The notes beneath the pieces were generated by a model. That model did not search any database. It was not told where the DNA came from and was given only the letters and a program-made list of their open reading frames with translations. Below are positions 339 through 19,937 of a stretch of DNA of 64,000 nucleotides, one piece after another. Source of the DNA: an uncultured Verrucomicrobiae bacterium (GTDB lineage: Bacteria > Chlamydiota > Chlamydiia > Chlamydiales > JAFEGQ01); contig CAVUAA010000001.1 in assembly GCA_963739345.1 (NCBI GenBank), positions 10,356-74,355 on the forward strand, written 5' to 3'. Position 1 is the stretch's first letter, and every line of letters begins with the position of its first letter. Both the position numbers and the translations under genes were made by a program.

Positions 339-2030
339 GTGCTCAAGGATTTCACGTCACGCGGCCTGATGAGCGGCCTGCTCATCGTGCTGCTGCTGCT
401 CGGGCTGCCGGTCGCGGTCTGGCTCGACCTCACCAATCTCGCGGAGGCCAACCTGCGCCGCCAGGCGATCGACCTCAACTCCGTGATCAGCAGCGTGCGC
501 AGCTACTATGCCAGCAACGTTGTCGGCCGCGTGCTGTCGTCCAGGGCCGCACACCGAGGTGGCGCACAATTACGAAAACATCCCGGGCGCCATCCCGATC
601 CCGGCCACGCTGTCGCTCGAGCTCGGCCGCGTCATCAGCGAGCAGCAGCAGAACATCACCTACCGCTTCGTCTCGGATTATCCGTTCGCGAACCGCGCGC
701 CGCATGCGCTCGACGAATTCGAGAAGGCGGCGCTGGTTGCGCTGCGCGCACAGCCCGATCGGCAGATGATCAATCAATCGATCGGCGCCTGTTCACCGAC
801 ACGCGTGCGGCTGGTCGCGCCGGTGATCATGGGCGCGGCCTGCGTGAGCTGCCACAACACGCATCCGGAAAGCCCGAAGCGGGACTGGAAGGTCGGCGAC
901 GTCCGCGGCATCCAGGAGGTGACCATCACGCAGAGGATCGCCGTCGCAATATTTTCTCCTTCAAGTACCTGCTTGCCTATTTCGCCTTCATGGCGGTCGT
1001 CCGGCGTCACGCTTCATCGGCATCCAGCGGCGGCAGGCGGCAACGATCCGCGGCATGAACAGCGAGCTGGAGACCTCCAACGAATTCCTGGCCTCGCTGT
1101 CAATGAAAATCTCGCGCTATCTGTCGCCGCAGATCTACAAGAGCATCTTCAGCGGCCAGAAGGACGTCGTCATCCACACCGAGCGCAAGAAGCTCACCAT
1201 CTTCTTCTCCGACATCAAGGATTTCACCGCCACCACCGAGCGGCTTGCAGCCGGAAGCAGATCACGCCGCTGCTCAACGAGTATTTCACCGAAATGTCGA
1301 ACATCGCGCTGTTCCATGGCGGCACCATCGACAAGTTCGTCGGCGACGCCATGCTGATCTTCTTCGGCGACCCGGAAACCAAGGGCGAGGCGCGAGGACG
1401 CCAAGCTGTGCCTGCGCATGGCGCTCGACATGCAGCGCCGGCTGGCCGCAGCTCAATGTCAAATGGCGCGGCGCCGGCACCGAGCAGCCGTTCCGCGTCC
1501 GCATGGGCATCAACACCGGCTTCTGCAACGTCGGCAATTTCGGCAGCGCCGATCGCATGGACTACACGATCATCGGCGCCGAAGCCAATCTCGCCGCGCG
1601 GCTGCAATCGATCGCCGAGCCCGGCGAGCATCGTCATGAGCTACGAGACCTATGCGCTGGTGCGCGACATGCTGGTGGCGCAGCGCGCTGCCGCCGATCA
1701 CCATGAAGGGCATCAGCCGCGAGGTGATCCCTTATGTCGGTCAAGGGCGTGCTCGACGCCGCGGGCCACAGCGTCGAGATCTTCAGCGAGCACACCACCG
1801 GTCTCGATTTCTATCTTGATCCGAGCATGGTCGACGCCGGCCGCGCCGAACACGTTCGCCGGCTGCTGCAGAATGCGTTAAAGGCGCTGGAGAAGGCGCC
1901 CACTGTAGAGCGAGTGGCCGGTTGGGCGAGAGCTACGCTGCCGAACCGGGGCCGGCGGTGCGCGCCGGGCGAAAGTTTGACGAAATCGACGGCGCAGCAC
2001 ATGCGGTTGGACCCGCGCCATTGGCGGTAG
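339..2030 (+). pseudogene. Membrane-anchored adenylate/guanylate cyclase with N-terminal CxxCH (DUF3365-like) sensor domain; split over at least 5 frames
   Basis: TM start MLKDFTSRGLMSGLLIVLLLLGLPVAVWL. Sensor CVSCHNTHPESPKRDWKVGDVRGIQEV (ORF 508..1881). Cyclase core KKLTIFFSDIKDFTATTERL (1055..1357), GGTIDKFVGDAMLIFFGDPE, FRVRMGINTGFCNVGNFGSADRMDYTIIGAEANLAARLQS. The pieces lie in different frames. Confidence 0.75.
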
Positions 2031-2186
2031 TCAGCTTGCCAGCGCGGTGAGAAAGCATGCATTGTTTCGCACAACGGACGGCAGTCCAGCCGTACGCAAG
2101 GATCGTGCCATGCTCGAAGTTGACGACATCCGTTGTGCTAAATCGACCAAGCGAGTGGCGAAACATGAGATTTTCATGAAGCGATC

Positions 2187-2533
2187 GTGTCGGCTATTTT
2201 TGGCGGCGCCAAGTCTGCTGCGAGCGCCATCACCGGCGGTTCGTCAGCGCCGGCGGCGGCCAAGCCGATGAGCCGCGCCGAGGTGGAAGGCATGATCCAG
2301 AAACTGGCCGATCAGTCGAAGGAAATGCTGGACTCGGCAGCATTCGATCGTCGACCTGATGAAGCTGGCTCAAGCTCGACAGCAGCCTGAAGTCATCGCG
2401 AGCAGCTCGCCAAGGAGCATGGCTACACCGGTGCTCTGACACGGCTCGCTGCGGAGATGAACATCTGGCTCACAAGCAGGTCATGACCAAGCTCGAAGAG
2501 AGCGGCGGTGGTCGTGCCGGACAGCCTGAAATA
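2187..2533 (+). pseudogene. DUF3597-like small protein, frameshifted
   Basis: VSAIFGGAKSA...KPMSRAEVEGMIQKLADQSKEMLD (ORF 2187..2390). The later segments SIVDLMKL and [13 protein letters not shown], ending ..VVPDSLK*, are seen only in other frames. Confidence 0.45.
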
Positions 2534-3989
2534 GACAGACGGTACCGGCTGAGCGGTTGCCTTGTGCGACTCTGCCGGCGCTGGCCGAACCCATCCTGCG
2601 CCGGCCGAGGCTCTAGCGCCGGCGCGCGTCCGGCGTACGGGTTGGCCTTCTCGCGCAGCGTCAGCCGGATCGGCGTGCCGGGCAGGTCGAACGCCTCGCG
2701 CAGCGCGTTGACCAGATAGCGCCGGTAGGCCGCCGGCACGGCGTCGGCGCGGGCGCAGAACAGCACGAAGCTCGGCGGGCGGCTCTTGGGCTGCGTCACG
2801 TAGTTGAGCCGGATGCGCCGGCCCGACACCGCGGGCGGCGGGTGCGCGGCGAGTAACATCGGCGAGCCAGCGGTTGAGCTCATGGGTCGGAACGCGCCGG
2901 TTCCAGACCTGCGTGAATGTCGACGATCGCCTGCATCAGCCGGTCGAGCCCCTCGCCGGTCAGGCCCGAGACGCCGATCAGCGGCACGCCCTTGACCTGC
3001 GGCAGCGCGTCGGTCGGCCTGTCTCGCGCAGCTTGGCTGAGTCCGCCGCCTGCCGCGCTCGGCCAGCGTCCCATTTGCTGATGCCGATGACCAGCGCGCG
3101 GCCCTCGCGCTCGACCAGGTCGGCGATGCGCAGATCCTGCTCCTCGAACGGCTGCTCGACCTCCATCAGCAGCACCACCACCTCGGCGAAGCGGATGGCG
3201 TTGATGGCGTCGGCGACCGAAAGCTTTTCGAGCTTTTCCTGCACCTTCGGCGGCCGCCGCAGCCCGGCGGTGTCGTGCAGCCGAAACGTCCGGCCGCGCC
3301 AATCGCAGATCGACCGCGATGGCGTCGCGGGTGATGCCGGCCTCGGGACCGGTCAGCAGCCGCTCCTCGCCGATCAGCCGGTTGACCAGTGTCGACTTGC
3401 CGGAGTTCGGCCGCCCGACCACGGCGACGCGGATCGGCCGGTCGCTCGGCCTCGGTCGGTCGGCGTCCTAGCGCAGGCTGCGCGGTCGCCTCCGGCAGCG
3501 CCGCGCGCAGCGCCTCGAAGAGGTCCGCCAAGCCCTCGCCATGTTCGGCGGAGATCGCGACCGGCTCGCCAAGGCCGAGCGCGATAGGCTTCGACGACGC
3601 CGGACTGCGCCGGCTTTGCCCTCGGCCTTGTTGGCGACCACGATCGCGGGCTTGCCCGAGCGGCGCACCAGATCGGCGAATGCGCGATCGTCGGGCAACG
3701 GTCCGGTGCGCGCGTCGATCAGGAAGAACACCGCGTCGGCCTGCTCGATCGCGGCCTTGGTCTGCTCCAGCATGCGGCCGGCGAGGCTGTCGGCGTCGGC
3801 GTCTTCGAGTCCGGCGGTGTCGATGAGCGGTGAATTGCAGATCGCCGAGTCGGGCCTCGCCCTCGCGCCGGTCGCGGGTGACGCCGGGCCGATCGTCGAC
3901 CAGCGCCAAGCCGCCGTGCCGACCAGCCGGTTGAACAGGGTCGACTTGCCGACGTTCGGCCGGCCGACGATGGCGACGGTGAAGCTCAT
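2470..3989 (-). pseudogene. der: Ribosome-associated GTPase Der/EngA, split over three frames; 3' end uncertain (may stop near ~2610)
   Basis: ATG at 3989 followed by MSFTVAIVGRPNVGKSTLFNRLVG. Second G domain [33 protein letters not shown] (ORF 2880..3422). C-terminus [47 protein letters not shown] (ORF 2470..2883). Confidence 0.8.
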
Positions 3990-3992
3990 GTC

Positions 3993-4482
3993 GAGCCCGC
4001 TCGGGTCCGATGCCCGCAATGCGAGGCCTGACAGTGCGGCAGGCTGCGGCTGATCGCGCCTGCTGCGGCGATCCGGGTGGAGGTCTGCTGCGGCCAGGCG
4101 CGGCTCTTGTTCGGCGCGGCGTCGTGCGGCCGGCGTGCGGCCGGACTGTGCGAGCCGTTGCGGCGCACCTGCGGCGGCGGCTCGGCGATATCGCGGCTGG
4201 CGATGCGGGCGAAGCTGGCGCCGCGGCGCGCTGTCGCCCTCGGTCTCGACCGGCTCGACCGGGCGGCGGCGGCGGCTCCGGCGGCGGTTGATAGCCGCGA
4301 ACCAGTTCCGGCGGCACGCCCTGTGGAACGCCCGGCACGCCGTCCGGGAAAACCGCCTTGCGTTCGCCGGGCAGCGGCTTCTTGGTGTTGAACCAGCTTT
4401 CCGGATCGAAACTTTCGCAGCCGCCGAGCGCAAGGCCGAACGCCAGAGCAGCCATCGTGAGCAGCGTGCGAGGGCGGCGCAT
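3993..4482 (-). CDS. Small Pro-rich lipoprotein upstream of der (3' end approximate)
   Basis: N-terminus MRRPRTLLTMAALAFGLALGGCESFDPESWF has a lipobox (LGGC). The rest of ORF 3166..4482 is read-through into der out of frame. Confidence 0.4.
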
Positions 4483-4490
4483 CGGGTCCC

Positions 4491-5150
4491 TCAGCTCTTC
4501 TGCCGGAAGTCGGCGAGCGCCATCAGAATCTGAACCTGGTTGCGGGCGCCGGCCGGAGCATCTGCGTCGGCAAGGACCATGTCGGTCCAGCGCCGCATCG
4601 CACTGATGTCGTTGGCGCGCCAGGCGGCCAGCGCCAGCAGGCTGCGCGCGCTGTGGCGGAAGGTGCGGTCCGGCGCGGTCAGCGGTTCCAGCCGCTGGCG
4701 CAAGTCTTCATAGGTTGCGGTGTCGACCAGGATGAGCCCGGCACGCAACGCTGGCCAGGTCCTGCGAGAACCCGGCCGACGCTGTGGATCGGCGGCGAGC
4801 TAATCGTAGATGCGCGACGCGCTGCCTTGGGATCGCGCTTGGCGAGATCGGCCGCCTCGTTCAACTTGCCGAGCATGCGGTAGGTCGCCGTGCCATCTGC
4901 CGCGAGCTTGGCAAAGGCGGCTTCGGCCTCCTTGTGACTTGCCCTGCTCGCTCAAGGTCATGGCGGCCTCAAACGCCGCGCCGGCCTGCGCTGCCTGCTT
5001 GGCCTCGTACCATTGATAGGCCCGCCAGCCGCCGACCGCGACGACCAAGCAGGACGCCGCCGCAATCAGGTAGATGCCATAGCGCTCCCACAGCTTTTGA
5101 AACTGCTCCCGGCGTACTTCTTCGTCGACTTCGCGGAAGATATCGGACAC
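4491..5150 (-). pseudogene. TPR-like membrane protein (YfgM-like), frameshifted
   Basis: [63 protein letters not shown] (4800..5150) continues in ORF 4491..4748 (..RSLLALAAWRANDISAMRRWTDMVLADADAPAGARNQVQILMALADF). Confidence 0.5.
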
Positions 5151-5288
5151 GAACCGTTCCCCTGCCTGCCGGACCGTCGTCCCCGGCTAAGCCATGCGCA
5201 GCCGCGTAAAATAGTGATGTGGCGGCCCCAAGGCAAAGGTTCCGCGCCGCAGGCAGGACCGTTAGCAGCGGCTGCGACGCAAAGCCAA

Positions 5289-6111
5289 CTACTTCTTCTT
5301 CATGCCATAGACGTGGTCGGGCCCGGGAAAGGCGCGCGAGCGCACGTCGCTGGCGTAGCCCGCGACCGCCGCCTCGATGCCGGGACCGATGTCGCCATAG
5401 CGCTTGACGAATCTGGGCACGCGCGGCGACAGCCCGAGCATATCCTCCAGCACCAGGATCTGGCCGTCGCAGGCCGGGCTTGCTCCGATCCCGATGGTCG
5501 GAACCGCCACCTGTTCGGTGATGCGGCGGGCCAGCGGCTCGGCCACCGCCTCGATAACCAGCGAGAACGCGCCCGGCGTCGGCCACCGACTCGGCGTCAT
5601 CCTCGATCGGGCCCCAATCCTTCTCCTCGCGGCCCTGGGCGCGGAACGAACCGATGGTGTTGATCGCCTGCGGGGTGAGGCCGACATGGCCCATCACCGG
5701 TACGCCGCGCTCGGTCAGGAAAGCGACGGTTTCGGCCAGCCGCCGGCCGCCCTCGACCTTGATCGCGCCGCAGCCGGTTTCCTTCATGACTCGCGCGGCG
5801 TTCATGAAGGCCTGCTCCTTGGACGCCTCGTAGGAACCGAACGGCATGTCCACCACCACCAGCGCCTGCTTGGAGCCGCGCATCACGGCATGGCCCTGAA
5901 GGATCATCATGTCGAGCGTCACCGGCACCGTCGTCTCGAGCCCATGCATCACCATGCCAAGCGAGTCTCCGACCAGGATGACGTCGCAGTATTGATCCAC
6001 CAGCCGTGCGGTGTGGGCGTGATAGGAGGTCAGGCATACGATCGGCTCGCCGCCCTTGCGGGCGCGGATGTCCGGCGCGGTCATGCGCTTGATCTGTTCT
6101 TGAACCGACAT
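5289..6111 (-). pseudogene. panB: 3-methyl-2-oxobutanoate hydroxymethyltransferase, one frameshift near ~5580
   Basis: [67 protein letters not shown]. The C-terminal part [25 protein letters not shown] lies in ORF 5289..5687. Confidence 0.85.
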
Positions 6112-6114
6112 GCT

Positions 6115-6712
6115 TCAACCTGTGAAAGCGGGGACGCCGATCACGTAGGGATGGAAGTACAAACCGAGCAGAACATACACTACCGTGCCAACCAGCACCG
6201 CAATGATGTCGTTCCTGACGCCGCCGACCGGGATCGGCGGCGCACCCGGATCGGCGCGGTGCTTGAGCGAAATGCGATCGAACACCGCCCAGGCCAGGAT
6301 CGCACCGAACAGCACGATCGAGCCGAGGTCGCCGTTCGAGAGCAAGATGCGCCAGCGCCCAAAGCTTCACCCCGACCAGGAACGGATGTTTGAGCGTGGT
6401 CTTGATGCGGCCCGGGCTGTAGGCGGCAACGATGCAGACGATCGCCGGCCAGACCAACGCGACCGTGACGTGGCGCATCCAGATCGGCGGATACCAGACC
6501 TCGATCGGGCCGGCCGCCCGATAAAGCGCAAATCCATGACCGATCAGAACCAGCCCGATCAGCGATATGATCGAATAGACCGCCTTGTACGTGCCGGTTC
6601 CGACCCGCGCGATCAGGTCTGCCCTTGCGCTCCGGAAGGCGGTGACGGTATGCGGCGCCAGAAACACCACCAGCCCGAGCACGAGTATCGCAAGGCCCAT
6701 GACGCGCTCCAC
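6115..6712 (-). pseudogene. NnrU family membrane protein, one frameshift
   Basis: MGLAILVLGLVVFLAPHTVTAFRSARADLIARVGTGTYKAVYSIISLIGLVLIGHGF.. (ORF 5597..6712), then LSNGDLGSIVLFGAILAWAVFDRISLKHR (ORF 6115..6345). Confidence 0.6.
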
Positions 6713-6715
6713 GCC

Positions 6716-6879
6716 CTAGTGTCCCGCTTCCGAAGTTCGTCATACGTCGCAGCATTCGCTGACACGAACTTCGGAAGCCAAGGGGCACTGGCAAGTCTAT
6801 GATTCTAGTGCCGCTTTCGATTTGAAGTTCCTGAATACGATTGCGGCAGATGGTCGCAGGAACTTCAAATCGGCGGCAC
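6716..6879 (+). repeat. Twin-hairpin intergenic repeat, copy 1
   Basis: ctagtgtcccgcttccgaagttcgt..acgaacttcggaagccaaggggcac, followed by ctagtgccgctttcgatttgaagttcctg..caggaacttcaaatcggcggcac. Nearly identical to 9335..9499. Confidence 0.85.
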
Positions 6880-6969
6880 CAGCGGGCAACCGCAGTAGGC
6901 CATGGCCCGCCCGGAAGCAAGGCCGCCACCGAGCGCACGCGAATGCACGCTCACCGCCGCCGCGCTATC

Positions 6970-8336
6970 ATGGACACCATGGTCGACCATGACATCCGCG
7001 AACCGGAGCGCCGCTTGCCCGTGCGCGGCGAATACGACGTGGTCGTGCTGGGCGGCGGTCCGGCCGGCATTGCTGCTGCGGCCGCTGCCGGCGGACTCGG
7101 GCGCAAGACGCTGCTGGTCGAGCGCTACGGCTTTCTCGGCGGCATGGGCACCGCCGCCGGCGTCACCAACTTCTGCGGACTGCACGCCAACGTCCACGGC
7201 GACATCCGCCAGGTCGTGCATGGCGTCGCCGATGAATTGCTGGAGCGGATCGACCGGCTGGGCGGCCTCAATGCGCCGCATCTCGTGTTCGGCAAGACCA
7301 AGGCGCAGGCCTACGACACCGCGGCCTACAAATGCGCGGCCGACGACCTGCTGCTCGGCCACGGCGTGGACATGCTGTTCCACGCTCTGGGCGCCGGCGT
7401 CGTGATGGACCCCGACGACACCATCCGCGCGCTGATCCTGGAGACCAAGTCGGGGCGCGCGGCCGTCGTCGCCGCATATTCATCGACTGCTCCGGCGACG
7501 GCGACCTTGCCGCCTTCGCCGGCGCGCCGTTCGAACGCGGCGACGGCCAAGGCTCGATGCTCTACCCGACCATGATGTTCCGCCTGAACGGCGTCGATCC
7601 CGAGGCCGCGGGCGAAGCCTGGAAGACGATCCCCGACCTGATGGACGACGCCGAGCGGCGCGGCGGGCAGTTTCCCGCGCAAGGGCGCGATCGTGCGTCC
7701 GCAGAAAAATCCGATCGAGTGGCGCGTCAACGTCACGCAGATGAAACGGCCGGATGGCAGCGCGCTCGACGGCACCAACGCCGACGAGCTCACTGCCGGT
7801 GAAATCGAGGGCCGCCGGCAGGCCATGGCGTTCTTTCGAATTCCTCAAGCGTGAGGCGCCGGGTTTCGCCAACGCCTATATCGTCGATATGCCGCCGCAG
7901 ATCGGCATCCGCGAGACGCGCCGCTGGCCGGCGCTATCAACTCACCGCCGAGGATGTGATCTCGCTGCGCGAGATTTTCCGGACACCATCGGCGTCAACG
8001 GCTGGCCGATCGAAAAGCATGTGGCCGGCGATGTCGAATGGCGAGTGGCCGGCCGATTCCGCAGTCGCGCGGCTTCAACCACCTGCCCTACCGGATGCTG
8101 GTGCCACGGAAGCGTGCGCAACCTGCTGGTGGCGGGCCGCTGCGCCTCGATGACGCACGAGGGTCAGTCGGCCGCACGGGTCAGCGGAGCCTGTTTCGTC
8201 ATGGGCGAAGGCCGCCGGCTACCGCCGCCCATCTGGCGCTTGCCGGCAATTCCGGCGTTGGCTGAGATTCCGGTTGAAGCGCTGCAGGCGTTTGCTTGAG
8301 AACGACGGCGCCTATCTCGGGCGTGACATCCGATGA
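6970..8336 (+). pseudogene. FAD-dependent oxidoreductase, multiple frameshifts
   Basis: MDTMVDHD..EYDVVVLGGGPAGIAAAAAAGGLGRKTLLVERYGFLGGMGT (dinucleotide-binding GxGxxG). Later segments FIDCSGDGDLAAFAGAPFE, FLKREAPGFANAYIVDMPPQIGIRETRR and LLVAGRCASMTHEGQSAARVSGACFVMGE lie in other frames. Confidence 0.65.
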
Positions 8337-8365
8337 CGCAGCCCGGCCCGGAGGAGAGGCAGACG

Positions 8366-9338
8366 ATGATGAGACGCTTGACTACTGGCGCTTGCACTGG
8401 TGGCTTGTCTGCTGGCGGCGCATGCCTGTCGGCTGCGCAGGATTGGCCGACCAAGCCGGTGCGGATCATCGTGCCGTTCGGCGCCGGCTCGACGCCCGAC
8501 GTGGTTGCCCGCCTGATCGCCGATCATCTGCAGAAGAAGCTCGGCCAGCCGTTCGTGATCGAGAACAAGCCGGGCGCCAGCGGCAACACCGGCACCGATG
8601 CGGTCGCCAAGGCCGCGCCCGACGGCTGCGACCATCGGCATCAGCATCGGCGGGCCGCTTGCCATCAACACGCTGCTGTTCTCGAAGCTGCCCTACAACC
8701 CCAGACCGACATCGCCCCGATTACCCAACTGGTGACCCAGCCGAGCGCGCTTGCGGTTAATTCCGACGTTATGGTTAACAGCGTCGCCGAACTGGTCGCG
8801 CTTTTGAAGCGCGAACCGGGCAAATACAACTTCGGATCGATCGGCAACGGCTCGCTTTCGCACCTGGCCATGGAGGCGATCGCGCTCAAGAGCGGCACCC
8901 AGATGGTGCATATCCCCTACCCGTCCTCGCCCGCGGCGATGACCGCGATCATCCGCGGCGACGTGCAAATGGGCTGTCTGCCTGCGATCTCGGTGACCCC
9001 GCATGCCGAGGCCGGCAAGGTCAAGATCCTCGCGGTCTCGACCGCGAAGCGTTCGCCCTATTTGCCGCAGATTCCGACGCTGAAAGAGGCCGGAATCGAC
9101 GTCGAAGCCGACGCCTGGATGGGCATGATCGCGCCCGGCGCACACGCCGGAGGCCATCGTTGCGAAAATTCAGCGCGAGGTGGTAGAAGCGATTGGGACG
9201 GCGGCGATCCGCGACAAGCTTGCGGCGCAGTTGATGGAGCCGGTCGGCAATACGCCGGCCGAGTTCCGGGCGCGCATCGACGGCGAGATCGCCCGCTGGG
9301 CGCCGGTGATCAAGGCCGCGAACGTCAAGGTTAACTAG
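8366..9338 (+). pseudogene. Bug/TctC-family tripartite tricarboxylate transporter substrate-binding protein, frameshifted
   Basis: WPTKPVRIIVPFGAGSTPDVVARLIADHLQKKLGQPFVIENKPGASGNTGTDAVAKAAPDG..YNFGSIGNGSLSHLAMEA. The end ..PVIKAANVKVN* is in another frame. Confidence 0.75.
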
Positions 9339-9499
9339 TGCCCCGCTTCCGAAGTTCGTGAGACATGGCAGCACTCTCTCACACGAACTTCGGAAGCAAA
9401 GGGGCACTGGCAAGTCGATGATTCTAGTGCCGCTTTCGATTTGGAAGTTCCTGAATGTGTATTGCGGCAAATGGTGCAGGAACTTCAAATCGGCGGCAC
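9335..9499 (+). repeat. Twin-hairpin intergenic repeat, copy 2
   Basis: Same two-hairpin architecture and near-identical sequence as 6716..6879, in the same orientation. Confidence 0.85.
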
Positions 9500-9540
9500 G
9501 AGGTCGGGGTCGCGCGTACGGGTAGCGTGGGAGCAAGGCG

Positions 9541-9944
9541 ATGAGTGCCGATCAATATCCCGAGGTCAGCGATGACGATGCGGGCATCGTCCCGCCGCAG
9601 GGTGGGCGTGGAGCGGAATGGCCGAAGAAAATTCGGACGCTGACGGCGGCGGAGCTTGATCGCCTGACGATCGACGCCGGCGGGCGGTTTTACTGGGACG
9701 GCCGCCTCGTCAACTATGAGCCCCCGCACCGCCCAAGCCTGCGGTCGAGGAGAAACCGGCCGAAGACCCGTCGGTTGACGCGCTCGACCGGTCGGCGATG
9801 GACCTGCTCGATCGCGCGGCACTCGAACTGACGGATCGAACGCCGGTCGAGCCGCTTGACGGCCGCGACGAGCAGGCCATGGCGGACCGGCTCGCGGCAG
9901 ACCACCCCGCTGCGACCGGCGACGAGGTCACAGCCGAACGTCAT
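9541..9944 (+). CDS. Hypothetical protein, frameshifted and apparently cut at the block boundary
   Basis: ORF 9541..9831 (MSADQYPEVSDDDAGIVPP..LTIDAGGRFYWDGRLVNYEPP) continues in ORF 9798..10148 up to about 9944. No family recognised. Confidence 0.3.
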
Positions 9945-10158
9945 ACGCGGGACAGGTCGCGGACGCGCTTGACCTCGACCTGGTCGATGACCGCGTTGAA
10001 GATCTTCTCGCGCGGGAGTGCTGGTAGCCGATCGTCACCAGCACGCAGTCGTTCTTGCGGTACTTGTGCGACTGTCGCCGCAGGCGGATTGTGGCCGTCT
10101 TGCGACCGCGCCGAAGCTGATCGGCGAACACCGACGAGTAGAAGTTGAGGACGCGCAC
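9941..10158 (-). pseudogene. ASCH-domain protein, 3'-truncated at the block boundary and frameshifted
   Basis: MRVLNFYSSVFADQLRRGRKTATIRL..KYRKNDCVLVTIGYQHS (9928..10158), then PREKIFNAVIDQVEVKRVRDLS (9941..10198). The expected distal part is absent. Confidence 0.5.
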
Positions 10159-10219
10159 GGGCGCTCAGCCTACCGATCTGATGACAAGCGCGCGACAACG
10201 CGCGCGAACGATTTCCCGC

Positions 10220-10600
10220 TCACCGGCGTAGGTCGAGTTCCCGAGCGGCCTGCTCCGAGGCATCCAGCGTGCATCCTCGATCTCGTGATCGTGGTCCTCG
10301 AGGCTCCCGATCGGTATTCGAACAGGTAGAACGCCACCCGCTTGTTCCGCCTGCGGCCCCGTCGCTCGTAGCTGTACTCGACGTCGCCGAGCTTTCGATC
10401 AGCTCGGCGATGCACGCCGGTCTCGGCGACCTCGCGGTCGCCGCCGCCTCCTCGGTCTCACCTTCGTCGAGATGTCCCTTGGGCAGCACGAGGACACGGC
10501 GGTGCTGGGCGTCGCGCTTGACCGGCACGACGACGATCACATCGCCGTCGTGAACGACAGCGCCACCGGCCGACAGCTCGATTGTCCCTCGACCACAGTA
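10220..10600 (-). pseudogene. NUDIX hydrolase, frameshifted (5' end approximate)
   Basis: ELSAGGAVVHDGDVIVVVPVKRDAQHRRVLVLPKGHLDEGETEEAAA, then REVAETGV.. (Nudix box GHxExGE..EAA.RE..EE/TG) spread over ORFs 10220..10540 and 10170..10415. Confidence 0.6.
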
Positions 10601-11316
10601 GACGTACCGTCCGAGCGCCTCTGCGTCATGAACGGTCAGCCTTCCGTCCCTGAGTAATTATTCCTGCGCGCTCGAGCACGGCCAGGAACCGGCTGGCCGA
10701 CTCGCGGCGAGGATCCGGCCAGCTGCGCGACCTCGGCCTGCGTGGTGGTGATCGTGACGTCACCCTCCTCCGGCGCCGTCCTGTCCGCGCGAGCCGCCTC
10801 ACCAGCTGAGCGAGGCACGGCGGCCACGCGGCTCTGCACGGTCTGGAACGACTGGCGCGGCCAGCCGCTCGTTGGTGTCGCGCAGTCGCGCCCGAGGGCC
10901 GCGATCAGCTTCACCGGAGATGTCGGGGTGCTCACGCAGCAGCCGGTGCATGTCGGCGCTGAGGATCGCGATCGCCTCGGTCTCCTCGGTCGTCTCCACC
11001 GTCGCCGACCGGCGCTCGCCGTCGAACATGGCCATCTCGCCGAAGATGTCGCCGGGCGCGAAATGCGCGAGCGGGTGATCGACCGCCCGTCGGGATGCTC
11101 GCGGATCGCGCGCGCCCGGCCCGAGCGGACGATGTAGCACGTAGTGCCCTCGTCGCCCTCCTTGAACACCACCTCCCCGGCCTCGAACCGCCGCGGCACC
11201 ACCAACTGTGCCACCTGCTCGAGCTCCTCGGGCGACAGCGCCGAGAAGACCGGAACCCGCCCGAGCAGCTCGACCGTGTCCTGGCCGTTCGCCGACATCG
11301 CCAATGCATACCACAC
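10600..11316 (-). pseudogene. Crp/Fnr-family transcriptional regulator, frameshifted (3' end approximate)
   Basis: cNMP-binding part LLGRVPVFSALSPEELEQVAQLVVPRRFEAGEVVFKEGDEGTTCYIVRSGRARAI, then GDIFGEMAMFDGERRSATVETTEETEAIAILSADMHRLLREHPD (ORF 10799..11419). The HTH part is in further frames. Confidence 0.7.
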
Positions 11317-11361
11317 GCGCTCCCGCGGCGGACGGACTCACGACCGGGCGCGACCCCGGGG

Positions 11362-12621
11362 TCAGGCCGCGTCGAGCGCCTGCTCGCGGCGCCGGCGCCG
11401 GACCGCCGGAGCCGACCACCAGAGCAGGGCGGCGACGAGAGCGACCGGGATGAGCGCGGCGAGCGCGATCAGCGCGACCCCGGCCGCCACGGTCAGCACG
11501 CGCCCGGCGTCGTGCGCAGCCTTGCCGATGCCGAACCCGCCGCTGACCGTGCGAGACGGGCAGCCGGCACGGACCGGGCGTTGATCTCCAGCGAGAGCTG
11601 GCTGAAGCCGACCTGGCGGTCCAGCCGATTCAGCGTCGCCTGGTCGCTCGAGATCGACGCCTCGGCGTCGCGGATCTGCGCCTTCAGGCTGTCGATTTGC
11701 TCGGTCGTCGTGGCGCGGCGAGCTGCTTGAGCAGCGACGTCCGCAGCGCCCGGCGCATCGGCCGAGCGCCCGCTGGGCCGCGCCGTACTGGTCGGTGATG
11801 TCCTGGCTCGAGTCCGTGCGTGAGACCACCTGCGCGCCGTTCAGCGAGGACAGACGGCTCATCGCCTGCCCGAGCGACGCGCTCGGGACGCTGAGCTGGA
11901 AACTCGGCGTACCTGGCCCGATCCGGCCTTGGGTCACGCGTCGAGTTCACGACGATTCCCGTTCACCGCGCCGATCACGTTGTAGACCTGCTCGGCACGT
12001 CGTCGATCCGGTTGGCGCAGCGGCCAGGTTGAGCTGGGCCGCGACTGGACGACCTTGCGGCCGGTGGTCGGCGGCTGCAGCGTCGGCGCCGCGACGACGA
12101 CGCGTCCGGTGCCGACGGCGCGGAACCGCTGCGCGGCGACGCGCTGTCGACGCGCGCTCGACGCGGCGCCGGCGACGTGCCGCCGATCGTCGCCTGGATG
12201 CCGACCGAGCGGCCTGACCCCGAAGCCGCCACCGAGCCGGCGCGACTCGACGACGACGATGACGATGACGATGACGACGAGGACCGACGGCCGCTGCTCG
12301 CCACGAGCACGATCGCCCGACCAGCGCCGCGACGGGCCGCCAGCCCGCCCGTCGCCTGCCAGAACCCGTGAACACCGGCGCCGGCGCCGGCTCGACCGCC
12401 GCCGGCGCCGGCACGTGGGGAACCGCCGCGCCACGCGCTCATCCATCGACCGGGCAAACTCCGGCGGGCATGGCCGGGCGCTCGGCGGACAGAAGCAGCG
12501 CGATCTCGGCCAGATCGGCGTAGCCGGCGTCGACCGGCTCGCCGGCGAGCACGGCGTCGATCGCGTCGAGCGAAGCGGCGATCTCGGGATCGATCGGTTC
12601 GTCGTGGTCAAGCAGTCGCAT
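11362..12621 (-). pseudogene. Anti-sigma-like N-terminus fused to DUF4349-type domain, frameshifted; contains a GAC/GAT triplet run
   Basis: MRLLDHDEPIDPEIAASLDAIDAVLAGEPVDAGYADLAEIALLLSAERPAMP (12439..12621). Distal FQLSVPSASLGQAMSRLSSLNGAQVVSRTDSSQDITDQYGAAQ (11362..11937). The start overlaps the stop of the upstream ECF sigma gene. Confidence 0.5.
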
Positions 12622-13164
12622 TGCAGGCCTTCCTGAGCTTCTCCATCGTGCGGTACAGCAGCGTGCCGGCGTTCGATTCGCTGATCCCGAGCACGCGGGC
12701 CAGCTCGGCGTTGGACAGCCCGGCGTGGAACTTCAGCGCGACGATCTCGCGCTCGCGGGCAGGCAGAGCAGCCAGCGCCGTCTGAACCGCGGTGCGGCGC
12801 AGAGCGACCTCGCCCGCATCTGGATCCGACAGCGATCGGCCTCCGCGGGCTCGGTCACCAGCGCCGCCACCCTCCGACGGCGGCGCAGCTCATCGAGCGC
12901 CGCGTTGCGAGCGATCCCGAACAGCCACGCGCGCTCCTCGCCGCGCCGGCGGTCGAACGTCCGCCGGCGCCGATAGGCGCGCTCGAACGCGAGCGCGGTC
13001 ACGTCCTCGGCCGCGGCCGGATCGCGCAGCAGGGTCATCACGTACGCGTACACGTCGTCGCGGCTCGAGCGGTACAGCGCCTCGAACCGTTCCCACGAGC
13101 CCGGAGCGGACGGCGGCGCGGTCAGCGTCTCGGTCACACCCTCGACTACGCACGAGGGCATCAT
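12604..13164 (-). pseudogene. ECF (sigma-70 family) RNA polymerase sigma factor, one frameshift
   Basis: WERFEALYRSSRDDVYAYVMTLLRDPAAAEDVTALAFERAYRRRRTFDRRRGEERAWLFGIARNAALDELRRRRR (region 2). Region 4 LPAREREIVALKFHAGLSNAELARVLGISESNAGTLLYRTMEKLRKA is in another frame. Confidence 0.75.
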
Positions 13165-13172
13165 CCATCACG

Positions 13173-13890
13173 TCACGAGTTGCTGCAAACAGCCTCGGGT
13201 CGTTGGTGATCACTCCGGTCACGCCAAGCGCCTCGAGCGCGCGCAGTCGAGGCAGCTCGTCGACCGTCCACACGTAGATCTCCCCTCCGGCCCCGAGCAC
13301 GGCCGCACGAGGCGCGGCGTGACCAGCCGCCAGTGCGACCATCAGCGCATCGCAACGCCGCGTCCCGGATCGCCCGCTGCCGCGCGAGCCGGGAGCAGCG
13401 CCGGAACACGTGCAGCGCGACGAACGCCGGCACCCGCGTGGCGCGCGAGCGAAACGGGTCGCGCTTGAGCTTGGGCACCGACCAGCCGAGCCTGACGCCC
13501 GGCTCGGCCGAGCGCAGCAGCGCGAGGCTCTCCTCGTACTGGGTCGAGATCAGGGCTCGGTCGAGCAACCCGTGCTCCCGCAGGGCTTCGAGCACCCGCA
13601 ACTCGTATCCGGGCAGCTTGAGGTCGACGTCGAGGTCGACCCGGCGAACGGCTCGGAGGCGAGGTAGGCCAGCGCCTCCTCCAGCGTGTGCGGCGTCGCG
13701 GGGCGCAGCGTCGACCCAGTCGTGGGCCAGGATCAAGCCCATCGCCGTACTCCTCCCGCAGCACATCGAACTCGATCATGTCGACGCCCGCCGCCACCGC
13801 CGCGTCGAAGCTCGCGAACGTGTTGCCCGGGGCGATCAGGTCGGCGCCCTTGTGCCCGACGCGCCGCAGACCGAGCGCTGCTCACTTCTG
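13173..13890 (-). pseudogene. Glycerophosphodiester phosphodiesterase family protein, frameshifted
   Basis: GVDMIEFDVLREEYGDG, LILAHDW, DLKLPGYELRVLEALREHGLLDRALISTQYEESL, and EIYVWTVDELPRLRALEALGVTGVITNDPRLF, in three frames. Confidence 0.6.
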
Positions 13891-14659
13891 ACATCCGGGG
13901 CACCAGTACGTCGTGCGGTTGGCGTCGCCCTGTCCCCGGGCCGCGATCCTCGTGCCGCACCGCGGGCACGGACGGCCTGCGAATCCGTACACCGCGGCTG
14001 GATCGCCCGGTGTCCGACCGTGGCCGAGCGCATCATCCGCGGGCGCATGGCATCGATGATCGCCATCGCCTGGAGATCGGAAACATCGGCCACGTGACCG
14101 CCACGGGTCGATCGCGGCCTCCCAGCACCCCTCGGCCTTCCAGATGTTCCCGATTCCCGCGACGTTGCGCTGATCGAGCAGGGCATCGCCGAGATGACGC
14201 GTCTGATCGTCCGCCTCGCAGCCGCGCGAGGAACCGCTCCGGTCGAACTCGCGCGCCAGCACGTCGGGCCCGAGCGCGGCGAGGCGCTGATCGAACCGTG
14301 TCCGGCCCTCGGTCATCAACTCGAGCAGCGGCCCGTCGAACTCCACCACTTCGTGCCCGCCGCAGCGGAGCACGATCCAGGCGCGCCGGGCCCGAGCGCC
14401 CCACCGGCGTCCGGCCGATAGACGCCCCACACGCCGGTCATCCCGAGGTGCGAGTGCAGGACCAGATCGCCCTCAAAGCGCAGGAACAGATGCTTGCCGT
14501 GGGTGTCGACGCTGCATGACCGCCCTGCCCAGCGAGCCGATCGGGCCAGCGGTCGAGCGCGTGCCGGGGCTGCGGCGTCAGGATCTCATCGGGCACGCGG
14601 CCTTCGAGCACCGGGCGGATGCGAACCGCGGCGTAGGCGATCGTGTCGCCCTCTGGCAT
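13882..14659 (-). pseudogene. Fpg/Nei-family DNA glycosylase, frameshifted
   Basis: N-terminal catalytic MPEGDTIAYAA (14438..14659). LLDQRNVAGIGNIWKAEGCWEAAIDPW and the zinc finger GRPCPRCGTRIAARGQGDANRTTYWCPGCQK (13882..14430). Confidence 0.75.
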
Positions 14660-16235
14660 TACGCGCTGAGGGTAGCCGCCGCGGACCCTGCTGGAAACCG
14701 AGCGCCACGAGCGCCGGCCCGACGGGCGAGGACAGCGCCGGTTCGCCGTCGACCTTCTCGAGCGCGAGCCGCCTGATCGCGCCCGCCCGAACCTCCTCGA
14801 CCAGCGCGCGCCAGCGCCGGCTCGATCCGGGGGTCATCCGACGCAACGAGCGTCTGCAGCCCGCGCCCGCCGCGCTCGACGTACAGCACGGGCTCGCCTC
14901 CGGCCAGCACCACGTACGCGCCCGGGACCCGGGTCGGGCGCGCGGCTCTCGTCGTCCGGGCCGGCCAGGCCAGCGCCGCACCGTACGGCTGCGCAGGATC
15001 GACCGCGGCGAGCACGACCGGCGGGTCCTCGTCTGCCCCGCCCGACCGCAGCCGCTCGACCGCGCCCGGAGGGCGAACTGCGCGCCGCCCAAGCCCTTCG
15101 ACGAAGTACCCGCGCCGCGCCACGCCCAGCGTCTCCAGCTGCGACAGCTCCGGGATATAGAGCCGAGAACCCGCCGGGCACCCCCTCGGCGCGCACCGTC
15201 TCGCGGGTCAGGATCCCGTAGCGCTCGAGCAGCAACTCGGCGATCGCCCGCCGGCGCGCCGACGGATCGGCCGTCGGCGGGAACAGCGACCCGGTCAGCG
15301 ACCAGCGACCCTGGACCTGCGCCGACGCGCCCGCGCCGCGACGCCGGCGACGCGAACCGGCCGGGTCGGGCGGCTCCTCGCAACCGGTCGCGCTGGGCCC
15401 GGGCCAGGGTCAGCCGCGGCGCGCGCAGCGGCGCGAACGCGTCGTTCGTCGCCTCGCCGGCCCAGGCCAGGTCCCACAGCGCCTCCTGCAACTCCTCGGG
15501 GGCCAGGTCGACGTCGACCAGCAGGTCGGTGAAGAAGCACGCGCCGGCGCCGAGCCGCGCGCGCACCGCCTCGTGCGCCGGCGAGTCGAGCGGCGCGCCA
15601 CTGCCTCTGGGCGGGGGCGCCAATCAGATCGCAGATCTTCGCGGAAGTACAGGGCGACCCGGCCGGAATTCCGCCCAGCGCACCGGCGCCGATCCACACG
15701 ATCTCGCCCGCAGCGCACAGCTGATCGATCCACGCCGGCGAATACGCGCCGACGCGTCGCGGGAGGACGTCGCGCTCCCACACCTCGGCCGGCACGGCCA
15801 GCCCCTGGAGCGGCACCAGCACCTCGCGCAGGCGGTCGACCCCGGCGCCGGTCGCCGGATGGCGGTCGACGCCCTGCCAGGCGGGGAGGAAGCGCGCCAG
15901 CGCGCGGTCGTCGACCGGCTCTACCTCCTTGCGCAGAACGGCCAGCGAGGCCCGGCGCAAGCGCCGCAGCACCTCGGGGTCGCACCATTCGCGCGTCGAC
16001 CCGCCAGGTCGCAGCTCACCCCGGACGAGGTCTCCGGATTCGTTCGAGCCCGGCCAGTACCGCGGACACGTCAACGCCATACCGCGCGCGAACATCGTCC
16101 ACGGTGAACGGTCCGTGGGTCGCGGCGTATCGACGCGCCAACCGGGTCAGCGCGTCCGGCACGTCCTCCAGGAACGCCGCCGGCAGGCCGCCGGGCGGTG
16201 CCGCGCCGAGCCCGTCGCGGTGAAGCGGATGCAGA
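14659..16235 (-). pseudogene. C-terminal part of an Lhr-type ATP-dependent helicase; 5'-truncated at the block boundary and frameshifted
   Basis: FLEDVPDALTRLARRYAATHGPFTVDDV (16016..16333), EWCDPEVLRRLRRASLAVLRKEVEPVDDRALARFLPAWQGV (15295..16095), ACFFTDLLVDVDLAPEELQEALWDLAWAGEATNDAFAPLR, YFVEGLG..VLAAVDPAQPYGAALAWP. The stop overlaps the nei start (TAATG). Confidence 0.6.
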
Positions 16236-16588
16236 GCTACTGCAAATATCGGAGTGCGCTCACCGCAGTGCTCGATGGGGAGGTGGTGGGGATCGCCTAC
16301 CTCAACCTCCACCCTTATCGAAAGATCGCGCATCAGGCGCTTTTCACCATCATCGTGGATGAGAAGGTGCGCGGCAAGGGAATTGGACGCGCTTTGTTAG
16401 AGGGGCTTGAGAAGCTAGCACGCGATGGCTTCAAGCTCGAGTCACTCCACTTAGAAGTGTATGAGGGTAATCCCGCCATCCGCCTCTACCGGCGGATGGG
16501 CTATCATGAGTTTGGCTTCCAAGGCCACTGGATCAAAGAAGGACCTGGCGACTACCGGGGCAAAATCTACATGGAGAAGTGGTTCTGA
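16236..16588 (+). CDS. GNAT-family N-acetyltransferase, 5'-truncated at the block boundary
   Basis: ..LDGEVVGIAYLNLHPYRKIAHQALFTIIVDEKVRGKGIGRALLEGLEKLARDGFKLESLHLEVYEGNPAIRLYRRMGYHEFG (acetyl-CoA motif RGKGIG). About 40 N-terminal residues seen in the downstream paralogue are missing. Confidence 0.6.
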
Positions 16589-17085
16589 ACTCCCTAGAGA
16601 TCCGACCAAGTATTACTGAGGATATTCCTCATCTTCAAGCGTGGCTTTCGGAGCCGCGTACAGAGCCTTTCTTTCCGACGGGCGATCCGCCGGAGATTGA
16701 GGATGCGGCGAAGCGATGGATTGAGATGACTATCGAGCAGGGGGCCGGTTTCACCGCCACCCTCGACGGCAAGCCTGCCGGCTTCGGGATGCTTTTCCTT
16801 CAGACTTATGAGAAGCTTGTCCATCAAGCTGTTCAAATCCTCGTCGTCGGCCAGGACCACCGCCGCCAAGGAGTTGGTTCCGCTCTCCTCACCGGCCTGG
16901 AGACGCTTGGCCAAGAAAAGGGTATAGAGCTGATCCACGTCGAAGTGTACGACGATCCGGGGGTGGAGCGATTCTATAAATTCCTTGGGTACCGCGAATA
17001 TGCCCGTCAGCTTGGTTGGTCCAAAGACGCTAAACAAGACCCACCGCTTTACCGCGCCCGCGTCTGCCTCGAAAAATTCATATAA
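16579..17085 (+). CDS. GNAT-family N-acetyltransferase (paralogue of the preceding gene)
   Basis: LEIRPSITEDIPHLQAWL..ILVVGQDHRRQGVGSALLTGLETLGQEKGIELIHVEVYDDPGVERFYKFLGYREY. Confidence 0.8.
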   Translation: MVLNSLEIRPSITEDIPHLQAWLSEPRTEPFFPTGDPPEIEDAAKRWIEMTIEQGAGFTATLDGKPAGFGMLFLQTYEKLVHQAVQILVVGQDHRRQGVGSALLTGLETLGQEKGIELIHVEVYDDPGVERFYKFLGYREYARQLGWSKDAKQDPPLYRARVCLEKFI

Positions 17086-17130
17086 CCTAACCAGTCGTTT
17101 TCTCCACTGATACGACACACCGACTCCTTG

Positions 17131-17186
17131 AGTTGTCATGTTTTCATGTCTGACACGATCGTGTCAGACATGAAAACATGACAACT
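17131..17186. repeat. Perfect 56-bp palindrome (28-bp arms, no spacer)
   Basis: agttgtcatgttttcatgtctgacacga|tcgtgtcagacatgaaaacatgacaact, centred on cgatcg. Lies between the GNAT stop and the SprT-like start. Confidence 0.9.
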
Positions 17187-17221
17187 GGCCAGTGAGTTGC
17201 CACAACTAGCCGGTTTGAGCT

Positions 17222-17923
17222 ATGATGGTACTCATCAATGAGCGGAAAATTGCACGTATGAAATTGTTGAGATCGGCGGGGTTGTTACAGCAAGAGTTGG
17301 AGATTCTCTCGGGCAAGCGGCTCGAGATGAAGATCAATCGGAACCGGGTGTCGCTCCTTCGGAAGACGGAGGTGGGGCGCAAGCGGGTTCGCTTGTCAAT
17401 TCATGAGGCTTTTTTGAGTGCGCCGCTTGAGGTGATCGAGGTGGTGGGCGACTGGATCGGTGGGATCGATACGGATGAGGGCGATATTGTTCTGCGCCAG
17501 TTCATCAACGGGATTGAGCTCAAGCGGCCACCACCTGCACGGCTGCAGACCAAAGGGAGTGTGTACGATCTAGGGGAGATCTATCACAAGCTCAATGGGC
17601 AATATTTCGGTGGGAAGTTAGATCTGAAGTGTACGTGGTATCAGCCCAAAAATCAGAGACGGCGGGCGCGCTCAAGGACTCTTGGGACCTATTGCGATGA
17701 TCGAGAGCTGGTCCGGATCAACACCATTCTCGACAATCCAAAGGTGATCCCTGAGTTTGTTGAGTTTGTCGTCTATCATGAAATGGTCCATCATGTCGTC
17801 CCCGCATATAGAGACAGGGCTGGTCGGCGGATTGTGCACAGCCGCCGCTTTCGAGAGGTGGAGCGGCAGTTTGAGCACTACGAGCTGGCCCACGAATGGG
17901 AAAAGAAAAATGGCTGGTCATAG
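17222..17923 (+). CDS. SprT-like zinc metallopeptidase-domain protein
   Basis: HExxH in EFVVYHEMVHHVVPAYRDRAGRRIVHSRRFREVERQF, preceded by WYQPKNQRRRARSRTLGTYCDDRELVRINTIL (SprT-like layout). Confidence 0.5.
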   Translation: MMVLINERKIARMKLLRSAGLLQQELEILSGKRLEMKINRNRVSLLRKTEVGRKRVRLSIHEAFLSAPLEVIEVVGDWIGGIDTDEGDIVLRQFINGIELKRPPPARLQTKGSVYDLGEIYHKLNGQYFGGKLDLKCTWYQPKNQRRRARSRTLGTYCDDRELVRINTILDNPKVIPEFVEFVVYHEMVHHVVPAYRDRAGRRIVHSRRFREVERQFEHYELAHEWEKKNGWS

Positions 17924-18629
17924 TAAATGGGCGAACATCAAGCACCGCAAAGAGCGGGCTGATGCGAAGAAGGGAAAGGCGTTCTCACGCGCGGCGAAGG
18001 AGATCATCAGTGCAGTGAAGGCAGGGGGGACCGATCCCGATGCTAATCCGCGACTCCGATTGGCCATTCAGAAAGCGAAGGCGGTCAATTTCCCTAACGA
18101 CAGCATCGATCGAAACATAAAGAAAGCGAGTAGCGCCGATCAGGCCGACTATTTTGAGCTCACCTACGAAGTGTATGGACATGGCGGGGTAGGTCTGCTG
18201 GTTGAAATCCTGACCGACAACAAAAATCGGATTGCGGGCGACATGCGGATCGCCACCAACAAGCGGGGAGGGACGATCGCCAACCCAGGTGCGGTCGCCT
18301 ACCAGTTTGATCGAAAAGGAGTGATCCAAGTTTCAAAAGAGGGGACCACCGAGGATGACCTTTTCCTGCTGGTCACCGAAGCTGGTGCTGAGGAGTTCGA
18401 CGTGGAGGAGGAGCTCTACATCGTGGTTACGCCCCCCGATGAGCTGATGGCGGTCAAAGAGGTGATCGATGGGGCTGGCGTGGAGGTACTAGAGGCTGAG
18501 CTCCGGATGATTCCGAAGATGCTCGTTGCGGTTGACGAAGAAACTGCCGATGCCAATCAGTCGCTCATCGATTGGCTAGAAGAGCTCGACGACGTCGATG
18601 CTGTCTACCACAACATGGATATAGATTAG
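17910..18629 (+). CDS. YebC/PmpR-family transcriptional regulator
   Basis: MAGHSKWANIKHRKERADAKKGKAFSRAAKEIISAVKAGGTDPDANPRLRLAIQKAK.. Overlaps the preceding stop by 14 nt. Confidence 0.9.
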   Translation: MAGHSKWANIKHRKERADAKKGKAFSRAAKEIISAVKAGGTDPDANPRLRLAIQKAKAVNFPNDSIDRNIKKASSADQADYFELTYEVYGHGGVGLLVEILTDNKNRIAGDMRIATNKRGGTIANPGAVAYQFDRKGVIQVSKEGTTEDDLFLLVTEAGAEEFDVEEELYIVVTPPDELMAVKEVIDGAGVEVLEAELRMIPKMLVAVDEETADANQSLIDWLEELDDVDAVYHNMDID

Positions 18630-19270
18630 TCGTCTTCCTGACGCACTCGTTGCAGCTTGCACTGCCCACCAAATTGGCGGATGCGGATCAGCGCCGTGAG
18701 AGTGACCAATCCGATGAAAGCGGTGGCGAGGGGAGCGAAGATAGAGGGCAGCAAGATCATTCCCAAAAAGAAGAGAAATGCCTCTGACCGCTCGATGAGA
18801 CCAGGGCTGTAGTGGAAGCTATCTGCTGAGTCATTTTCGCTGAAGATGCCCACCACGAGAAATGAGCTGATGCAGAGGAGGATGCTGGTGAGCATCAGTA
18901 GACAGAAGAGGGCGCGATCGGGAGCGACGAGGAAGAGGCCAATCACCACAGCCGATTCGACCACCCGATCAGCGCAAATGTCGAGGACGGTGCCCCAAGG
19001 AGAGCTCTCTCGTCTGAGTCTTGCGATGGTTCCATCAAGGATGTCGAGGTAGCCAGAGAGGATGAGGGCAGAGGCTGCGGCAATCGGAAGGCCAAAGGCG
19101 AGGAGGGGGATGACCGCAATGCCCAGTAGGCAGCTGATGGAGGTGACGATGTTGGCCGGCACGCGGACCAGCTTTCTGGCGATGGGATCGATCAGCAGTT
19201 TCTGAAAGGGGGAGCGGAAGTAAGAATCAATCATGCTTGTTTTTCCTGTTTCGGATCCGGCGGATCGCAA
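18626..19270 (-). CDS. CDP-alcohol phosphatidyltransferase family protein (alternative start 19234)
   Basis: Motif DILDGTIARLRRESSPWGTVLDICADRV (DG..AR..G...D...D), multiple TM segments. Confidence 0.8.
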   Translation of the reverse strand: MRSAGSETGKTSMIDSYFRSPFQKLLIDPIARKLVRVPANIVTSISCLLGIAVIPLLAFGLPIAAASALILSGYLDILDGTIARLRRESSPWGTVLDICADRVVESAVVIGLFLVAPDRALFCLLMLTSILLCISSFLVVGIFSENDSADSFHYSPGLIERSEAFLFFLGMILLPSIFAPLATAFIGLVTLTALIRIRQFGGQCKLQRVRQEDD

Positions 19271-19937
19271 TGGGGAGGAGGGCGACGAGGGCGAGGGCGA
19301 TGAGGGCGATTCTCATATCGGTGTTGAGGATCCCTTCAATGGTAAATCCTTCATCCGAGTCAAGGATGGCGCCAAGGCCTGTTCCCGCCTGCGCGAGGAC
19401 GAAGCTTCCTGGAATGATGCCGATGAAGGTGGTCCAGATGTAGGTCCAGAGCGCCACGCCAAAGAAGGCGGGGGCGATGTTGATCAGCCAGAAGGGGAAG
19501 AGAGGTGCTAGACGGAGGAAGAGCATGTAGCTCACCTGGTCTTTCTGAAAACCGCGCTCCATCTTCTTCAGGTGGGGACCCGCGCGCGCGCGCAGCACAT
19601 CTCCAAGAGCTGTCTTGGCCACCAAAAAGATGATCACCGCTCCCACTGTCGCCCCCAATACGACGTAGATCGTACTTCCAGGCTGCCCAAAGAGAAATCC
19701 GGCAACCAACGTGAGATAGGTCCCTCCGGGGATACTGAGCGCGGTCGAGACGAGATAGATTCCCATGAAAGCGAGGGGTGCAACGATGTAGCGATCGTCG
19801 ATCCAGCCCACAATCGCTTGCCGATGCTTTTGCAGCACCTCAAAGCTAAGGTAGTCGGTGAGATCGAAGATGTAGGCGACCACCATCAGGGCAACAATCA
19901 CCAGAAGGGGAATTAGTCGCCACAGCCATCTACGCAT
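19227..19937 (-). CDS. TVP38/TMEM64 (DedA-related) family membrane protein
   Basis: YLTLVAGFLFGQPGSTIYVVLGATVGAVIIFLVAKT..MLFLRLAPLFPFWLINIAPAFF. 8-nt overlaps with both neighbours. Confidence 0.75.
   Translation of the reverse strand: MRRWLWRLIPLLVIVALMVVAYIFDLTDYLSFEVLQKHRQAIVGWIDDRYIVAPLAFMGIYLVSTALSIPGGTYLTLVAGFLFGQPGSTIYVVLGATVGAVIIFLVAKTALGDVLRARAGPHLKKMERGFQKDQVSYMLFLRLAPLFPFWLINIAPAFFGVALWTYIWTTFIGIIPGSFVLAQAGTGLGAILDSDEGFTIEGILNTDMRIALIALALVALLPIAIRRIRNRKNKHD

Follow-up and report, generated by a model that had tools for sequence, protein, structure and literature searches.

A blunt and very probably artificial join of alphaproteobacterial and Solirubrobacterales DNA within a 1.25-Mb Chlamydiota-like contig

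The 64,000-nucleotide stretch of DNA analysed here, which we refer to as the window, contains three pieces from three unrelated sources, and the two junctions at which these pieces meet are both sharp and both lie inside genes (Table 1). At the first junction (9938/9945), the gene content switches from PanB, NnrU, FAD oxidoreductase, TctC and hypothetical genes on the left to ASCH, NUDIX, cNMP-binding, DUF4349, ECF sigma, GDPD, Fpg and Lhr genes on the right; a preliminary description of the window had proposed a switch in gene content at this position. The two genes that face each other there, one on the plus strand and one on the minus strand, are both incomplete.

Table 1. Coordinates of the three pieces of the window, of their junctions and of selected features
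Feature	Coordinates	Strand	Description
Piece 1	1..9938		Nitrobacteraceae/Xanthobacteraceae-like chromosome block with Der, PanB, NnrU, FAD oxidoreductase, TctC and a hypothetical gene; GC 0.666
TctC/Bug-family solute receptor gene	8333..9335	+	Pfam TctC, E = 3.5e-49; broken by frameshifts
Twin-hairpin repeat element	9339..9497		157 nt; second copy at 6723-6877
Conserved alphaproteobacterial hypothetical gene, 5' part	9541..9938	+	residues 1 to about 133 of 205-240; cut by the junction
Breakpoint	9939-9944		CGTCAT, 6 nt, attributable to the source of neither flank (blastn and base-level alignment)
Junction sequence	across 9938/9945		AGGTCACAGCCGAACGTCATACGCGGGACAGGTCGC
Piece 2	9945..16221		6,277 bp, Solirubrobacterales-like (Actinomycetota), with ASCH, NUDIX, cNMP-binding, DUF4349, ECF sigma, GDPD, Fpg and partial Lhr; GC 0.724
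ASCH-domain gene, 5' two-thirds	9945..10158	-	residues 1 to about 71; start at 10158; cut by the junction
NUDIX hydrolase gene	10180..10560	-	Pfam NUDIX, E = 2.2e-15 on the repaired translation; at least 2-4 frameshifts
Lhr helicase gene, 3' part	14661..16225	-	cut at the second junction
Second blunt break	16221/16222		Lhr (minus strand) and GNAT (plus strand) both cut mid-ORF
Piece 3	16222..64000		Chlamydiota-like, with intact genes; GC 0.554
GNAT acetyltransferase gene	16223..16588	+	first gene of piece 3; about 45 N-terminal residues missing
Perfect palindrome	17131-17186		56 nt, with 28-nt arms and no spacer; intergenic, flanked in piece 3 by the SprT-like and second GNAT genes
tmRNA gene	37365-37783	-	Rfam RF00023, 140.9 bits

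An exact-sequence look-up found ORFs from all three pieces recorded on one and the same contig of 1,252,598 bp (NCBI and ENA). These were the ORF at 8333-9334 in piece 1 (333 aa), that at 13173-13742 in piece 2 (189 aa, matched as a variant with an internal ATG start) and five ORFs in piece 3. The ORFs at 9798-10148 (+), 9928-10158 (-) and 15929-16588 (+) were absent from the protein collection; those that cross a junction are probably missing from it because the gene caller chose other ORFs. Six ORFs of the window with GTG or TTG starts, re-queried with M as the first residue, likewise returned no entry in the protein collection. The shared 1,252,598-bp record in the protein index indicates, albeit indirectly, that the junction sits inside a single deposited contig. 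We also considered that separate contigs of a metagenome or bin had been placed end to end and that 9938/9945 marks their boundary. The breaks are indeed sharp, mid-gene and without filler, the adjoining pieces are taxonomically unrelated, and a 36-mer spanning the junction had no match in either of two public collections, the GTDB representative genomes and the JGI metagenomes. Three separate contigs would, however, differ in size, and pieces of about 6.3 kb and about 10 kb cannot be 1.25 Mb long, which leaves this reading extremely unlikely. Since ORFs of all three pieces share the 1,252,598-bp contig, the window is better described as a chimera within a contig than as a concatenation of records.

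Through the pair of genes cut at the junction we located the closest public relative of each side, namely L001 (ENA ERZ25039545 contig_55236, 126.7 kb) for piece 1 and L002 (ENA/NCBI ERZ25039595 contig_10920, 604 kb) for piece 2. Piece 1 was colinear with L001 at 87-89% nucleotide identity, and the blastn match of the left flank stopped at 9938 (E = 7e-165). Piece 2 was colinear with positions 984-10215 of L002, in reverse orientation and at 68-73% identity, and the blastn match of the right flank began at 9945 (E = 0). In base-level alignments, the final codon common to the left side and its relatives was the GAA at 9936-9938. The preliminary description had placed a junction between two GC-rich sources at about 9945; the split of the alignments, together with the truncation of two genes described below, confirms that position to within 7 nt.

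Both L001 and L002 extend for about 10 kb beyond the point at which their match to the window ends, and in each the remainder of the cut gene is followed by the locus's own conserved neighbours. Neither continuation was found in the window. The gene order of L002 (Lhr, Fpg, GDPD, ECF sigma, DUF4349, cNMP-binding, ASCH) matches that of piece 2; after the ASCH gene, L002 carries DUF192 and GroES/GroEL, both of which are absent from the window. On the left side, the alphaproteobacterial relatives share conserved DNA downstream of their hypothetical gene, and this too is absent from the window.

A scan of the GTDB representative genomes returned 25 loci that are syntenic with the left side and share some or all of its genes, and the sequence to the right of 9938 was matched by none of these 25. 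The loci were labelled Alphaproteobacteria, Xanthobacteraceae or Rhodoplanes, except for two, whose labels were Pseudomonadota in one case and Actinomycetota in the other. Rhodoplanes is placed in the Nitrobacteraceae, the former Bradyrhizobiaceae, and the set of relatives (Alphaproteobacteria, Xanthobacteraceae and Rhodoplanes MAGs) agrees with the Bradyrhizobiaceae-like source that had first been suggested for the left side. The actinobacterium-like source suggested for the right side was borne out by the relatives of the ASCH gene, which belong to Baekduia, Solirubrobacteraceae and Thermoleophilaceae, all of them Actinomycetota. A single lineage with synteny running across the position was not seen, as all 27 of the 27 related loci lost their match at the break.

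The twin-hairpin element that precedes the hypothetical gene is present in two copies that are 90% identical. Because it is absent from the loci L001-L027, the element looks like a strain-specific insertion of the MITE or REP type.

The gene that starts at 9541 on the plus strand is a member of a conserved family without a Pfam entry, which comprises 490 homologues at E <= 0.001 and whose members are about 205-240 aa long. The family is represented in the Alphaproteobacteria, Xanthobacteraceae and Rhodoplanes MAG loci that were retrieved. The family begins with EWPKKIRTLTAAELDRLTID..GRFYWDG.LVNY, and its C-terminus consists of a transmembrane helix and then DWGC...YCPPP...DIPA. Homologues of the copy in the window reached E values as low as 4.6e-64, and the named ones came from Hyphomicrobiales and Alphaproteobacteria MAGs. 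This copy had been described as ending without a recognisable terminus, and alignment to the homologues supported that description: the match to the family extended only to about residue 133, and the C-terminal transmembrane segment and the DWGC...CPPP...DIPA end were lacking.

The ASCH-domain gene on the other side of the junction is 92% identical to the protein P0121 and 81-91% identical to Baekduia and Solirubrobacteraceae proteins. It scored 26.5 bits against the Pfam ASCH profile (PF04266; cut-off 21.2), with only profile positions 6-62 of 103 covered. The distal third of this gene had been thought to be lost at the switch, and this proved to be so, since the match to homologues ended at residue 70-71 in '...VEVKRVRDLS', with the tblastn match ending at 9950. 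The homologues (104-126 aa) continue with PRDIEHDNPEF... where the copy in the window stops. The missing ends of the hypothetical gene and of the ASCH gene were not found elsewhere in the window.

We then asked whether anything is shared across the break. Similarity to the sequence beyond the break did not rise above that of shuffled sequence in either direction, as 311 of 500 and 441 of 500 shuffles reached the observed score. One tblastn alignment had extended the ASCH similarity across the break as far as 9875; it was not significant against shuffles and was rejected. A search for flanking direct or inverted repeats gave only weak, GC-rich chance pairs, and none of these was placed at both 9940 and 16221. 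No ONT adapter was present at the junction. Pfam scans of the ORFs on either side of the junction detected no integrase, transposase or other mobility family, the genes of piece 2 being the housekeeping set also present in L002, and no tRNA gene borders the junction; the sole tRNA-like gene, the tmRNA at 37365, lies about 21 kb off.

These results bear on the possibility of an assembler mis-join, in which metaFlye would have merged the paths of different genomes through a shared repeat with no chimeric read being involved. Graph mis-resolution of this kind is a known cause of misassemblies in long-read data (10.1101/2025.09.05.674543). At the break, however, the genomes have no sequence in common, and the points at which similarity to the one and to the other reference ends are no more than 6 nt apart. 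Overlap-based joins require hundreds to thousands of shared bases. A repeat-mediated mis-join is disfavoured because such sequence is absent, and we consider it very unlikely.

Composition had been said to hide the junction, and this was true only in part. The two pieces are similar, with a GC content of 0.666 (left) and 0.724 (right) and a tetranucleotide correlation of 0.925, but a sliding tetranucleotide comparison, which took non-overlapping parts of two reference genomes as its references, flipped at about 9-10 kb. Composition is a weak but not a blind indicator of this junction.

The pieces also differ in the integrity of their reading frames. Using tblastn matches against ORFs from clean short-read MAGs, we counted at least 10 frame changes in about 7 kb of piece 1, or about 1.5 frameshifts per kb, distributed over the Der, PanB, NnrU, FAD oxidoreductase, TctC (at about 8610, 8702 and 9135) and hypothetical genes. 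Piece 2 contains at least 17 frame changes in 6.3 kb, or about 2.7 per kb. No frame change was found in seven genes of piece 3 (IleRS, RNR-alpha, DegP, dipeptidase, PhoH2, BioA and a MerA-like reductase), which total 12.9 kb and match NCBIfam models from end to end. Two frameshifts were examined individually, one in a run of C at about 9728 in the hypothetical gene and the other a 1-nt deletion at about 10016 in the ASCH gene, and both were single-base length errors. L001 and L002, which come from the same type of assembly, carry similarly broken genes, for example a PanB gene split in two and a GroEL gene split in three. A much higher figure of about 20 frameshifts per kb, obtained from runs of gaps in the blastn alignment to L001, was rejected as alignment noise between two sequences that both contain errors.

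Substitutions specific to the window were counted in four genes of piece 1, where 33, 21 and 144 fell at codon positions 1, 2 and 3, respectively, and the two closest relatives showed the same pattern. Judged by codon position, the substitutions in piece 1 still reflect purifying selection. The frameshifts are technical in origin, and not evolutionary decay, because the substitutions retain this pattern.

At 16221, the GC content falls from about 0.72 to 0.55 and the frameshift errors come to an end. The alignment of the Lhr gene ends there at L002 position 984, which lies within the 1484-aa Lhr gene of that contig. On the other side of the break, full-length GNAT-GNAT-SprT-YebC arrangements are found in the relatives L077 and L092. 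Relatives of piece 3 that run across 16221 in the JGI metagenomes were only distant (at most 46% identity), and two of them keep the order GNAT-SprT-YebC. The best named matches of the piece 3 IleRS were to Chlamydiia/Parachlamydia, at 61-63% identity, and the Chlamydiota-like piece 3 is presumably the true owner of the contig. Piece 3 also contains the perfect palindrome and the tmRNA gene listed in Table 1; for the latter, ARAGORN predicted an unusually long tag peptide, AKTTNKIHAVDFRGARAEAEAEWAMAA.

Could the arrangement be biological? Under real horizontal transfer, a soil member of the Chlamydiota, or an alphaproteobacterium, would carry a recently acquired, mosaic foreign island that is decaying into pseudogenes. 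The location of the DNA inside a long contig and the disruption of all genes of pieces 1 and 2, which resemble pseudogenes, are in keeping with such an island. Several observations run against it. Four genes of housekeeping type are cut internally, one on either side of each junction, and the borders lack an integrase, a transposase, a tRNA gene and any direct or inverted repeat. The chromosomal gene order of the donors is kept right up to the cut, so that unameliorated blocks of two phyla stand side by side. Genes are broken in a similar way in the related contigs L001 and L002, and 73% of the lineage-specific substitutions fall at third codon positions, which would mean that selection acted while the genes were supposedly dead. 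The switch in error rate, moreover, coincides exactly with the taxonomic switch. Taken together, these points make real transfer extremely improbable. A special form of it, in which a divergent soil chlamydia had very recently acquired an alphaproteobacterial and actinobacterial patchwork by illegitimate end-joining and this had already become frameshifted, is likewise extremely improbable.

In known genomic islands and transferred blocks, the lineage of the best hits also changes abruptly, as does the GC content here at 16221. Unlike an island of this kind, the foreign stretch lacks integration machinery, association with a target site or tRNA, and intact cargo. Both junctions interrupt genes on either side, and each block is an unameliorated copy of a donor chromosome segment with its synteny preserved.

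The closest relatives of the foreign pieces came from Microflora Danica long-read assemblies and MAGs, recognisable by their MFD labels and Flye-style 'contig_N' names, and, judging by these relatives, the window itself would belong to the same data set. In that project, libraries were prepared with the SQK-LSK114 ligation kit, and assembly with Flye 2.9.2 (--meta --nano-hq) was followed by one round of Medaka; the median read N50 was 6.1 kb (PMC12313526). The 6,277-bp middle piece is as long as the fragments typical of such libraries.

We consider it very probable that 9938/9945 is an artificial, blunt join of alphaproteobacterial and Solirubrobacterales DNA, created by chimeric Nanopore reads in a metaFlye assembly and now lying inside a 1.25-Mb contig that is Chlamydiota-like in this part. 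Fragments of an alphaproteobacterium and of a member of the Solirubrobacterales, both of low abundance, would have been ligated to one another and to a chlamydial fragment during library preparation with the ligation kit, and one or a few chimeric Nanopore reads would have brought in the foreign DNA. metaFlye may then have extended or bridged the chlamydial contig with these reads where supporting coverage was almost nil. At a depth close to that of a single read, indel errors would have survived the one round of Medaka for want of supporting coverage. Ligated reads that combine three fragments are uncommon, which counts against this explanation. A chimeric-read origin is nevertheless the best supported, because the junction bears neither a biological mark nor shared sequence, the project followed a ligation and Flye workflow, the middle piece resembles a read in size, and the failure mode is a known one. 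No biological function attaches to the junction.

For ONT data, chimeric reads composed of segments from distinct genomes have been described, together with the chimeric assemblies that they cause (myloasm preprint, 10.1101/2025.09.05.674543). The window resembles such inter-genome chimeric contigs in that distinct genomes are joined at a sharp break with no shared sequence and with a locally poor consensus. It differs from them in that genomes of three phyla are joined in a span of 16 kb, the middle one contributing a read-sized piece (6,277 bp), and in that the case is known from sequence alone. The chimerism of MAGs at the level of the bin, the target of GUNC and CheckM2, similarly places genes of a foreign lineage in a genome attributed to one organism, whereas here the foreign DNA lies within a single contig and makes up about 16 kb of 1.25 Mb. 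These tools are aimed at contigs that were wrongly binned together, and about 16 kb in 1.25 Mb is probably too little to be flagged through marker genes.

Two further observations were made among the related loci. The one labelled 'uncultured Actinomycetota' (L024, MFD00392.bin.1.247 contig_18067, 438994-451230 of 466273) carries an alphaproteobacterial Der-PanB-FADox-TctC-hypothetical block that includes the conserved downstream genes and is 82-85% identical to the window at the nucleotide level. It may be another chimera of an alphaproteobacterium and an actinobacterium, or a mis-binned contig, from the same project; as a possible second case, it raises the prospect that the problem recurs there. 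In MFD02242.bin.2.266, two diverged TctC-hypothetical-gene blocks (L003 and L025) lie on separate contigs, and one block is located at the end of its contig. This suggests that the bin mixes strains or suffers from some other assembly problem.

A public, Chlamydiota-like contig of 1.25 Mb contains at least 16 kb of DNA that belongs to two other phyla. Accepted as it stands, this DNA would lead to false calls of gene transfer between phyla, would add spurious PanB, TctC, Fpg, Lhr and ECF sigma genes to the chlamydial repertoire and would place false pseudogenes in the annotation. Chimeras of this type can be recognised from their sequence by synteny that is lost at a single point, truncated genes on either side of it and an abrupt change in frameshift frequency at the taxonomic switch, a signature that may be useful for cleaning catalogues of long-read MAGs. 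The junction is almost certainly an artefact that holds no biological novelty, and its value lies in data curation and as an illustration of how a chimera is spotted in the sequence itself.
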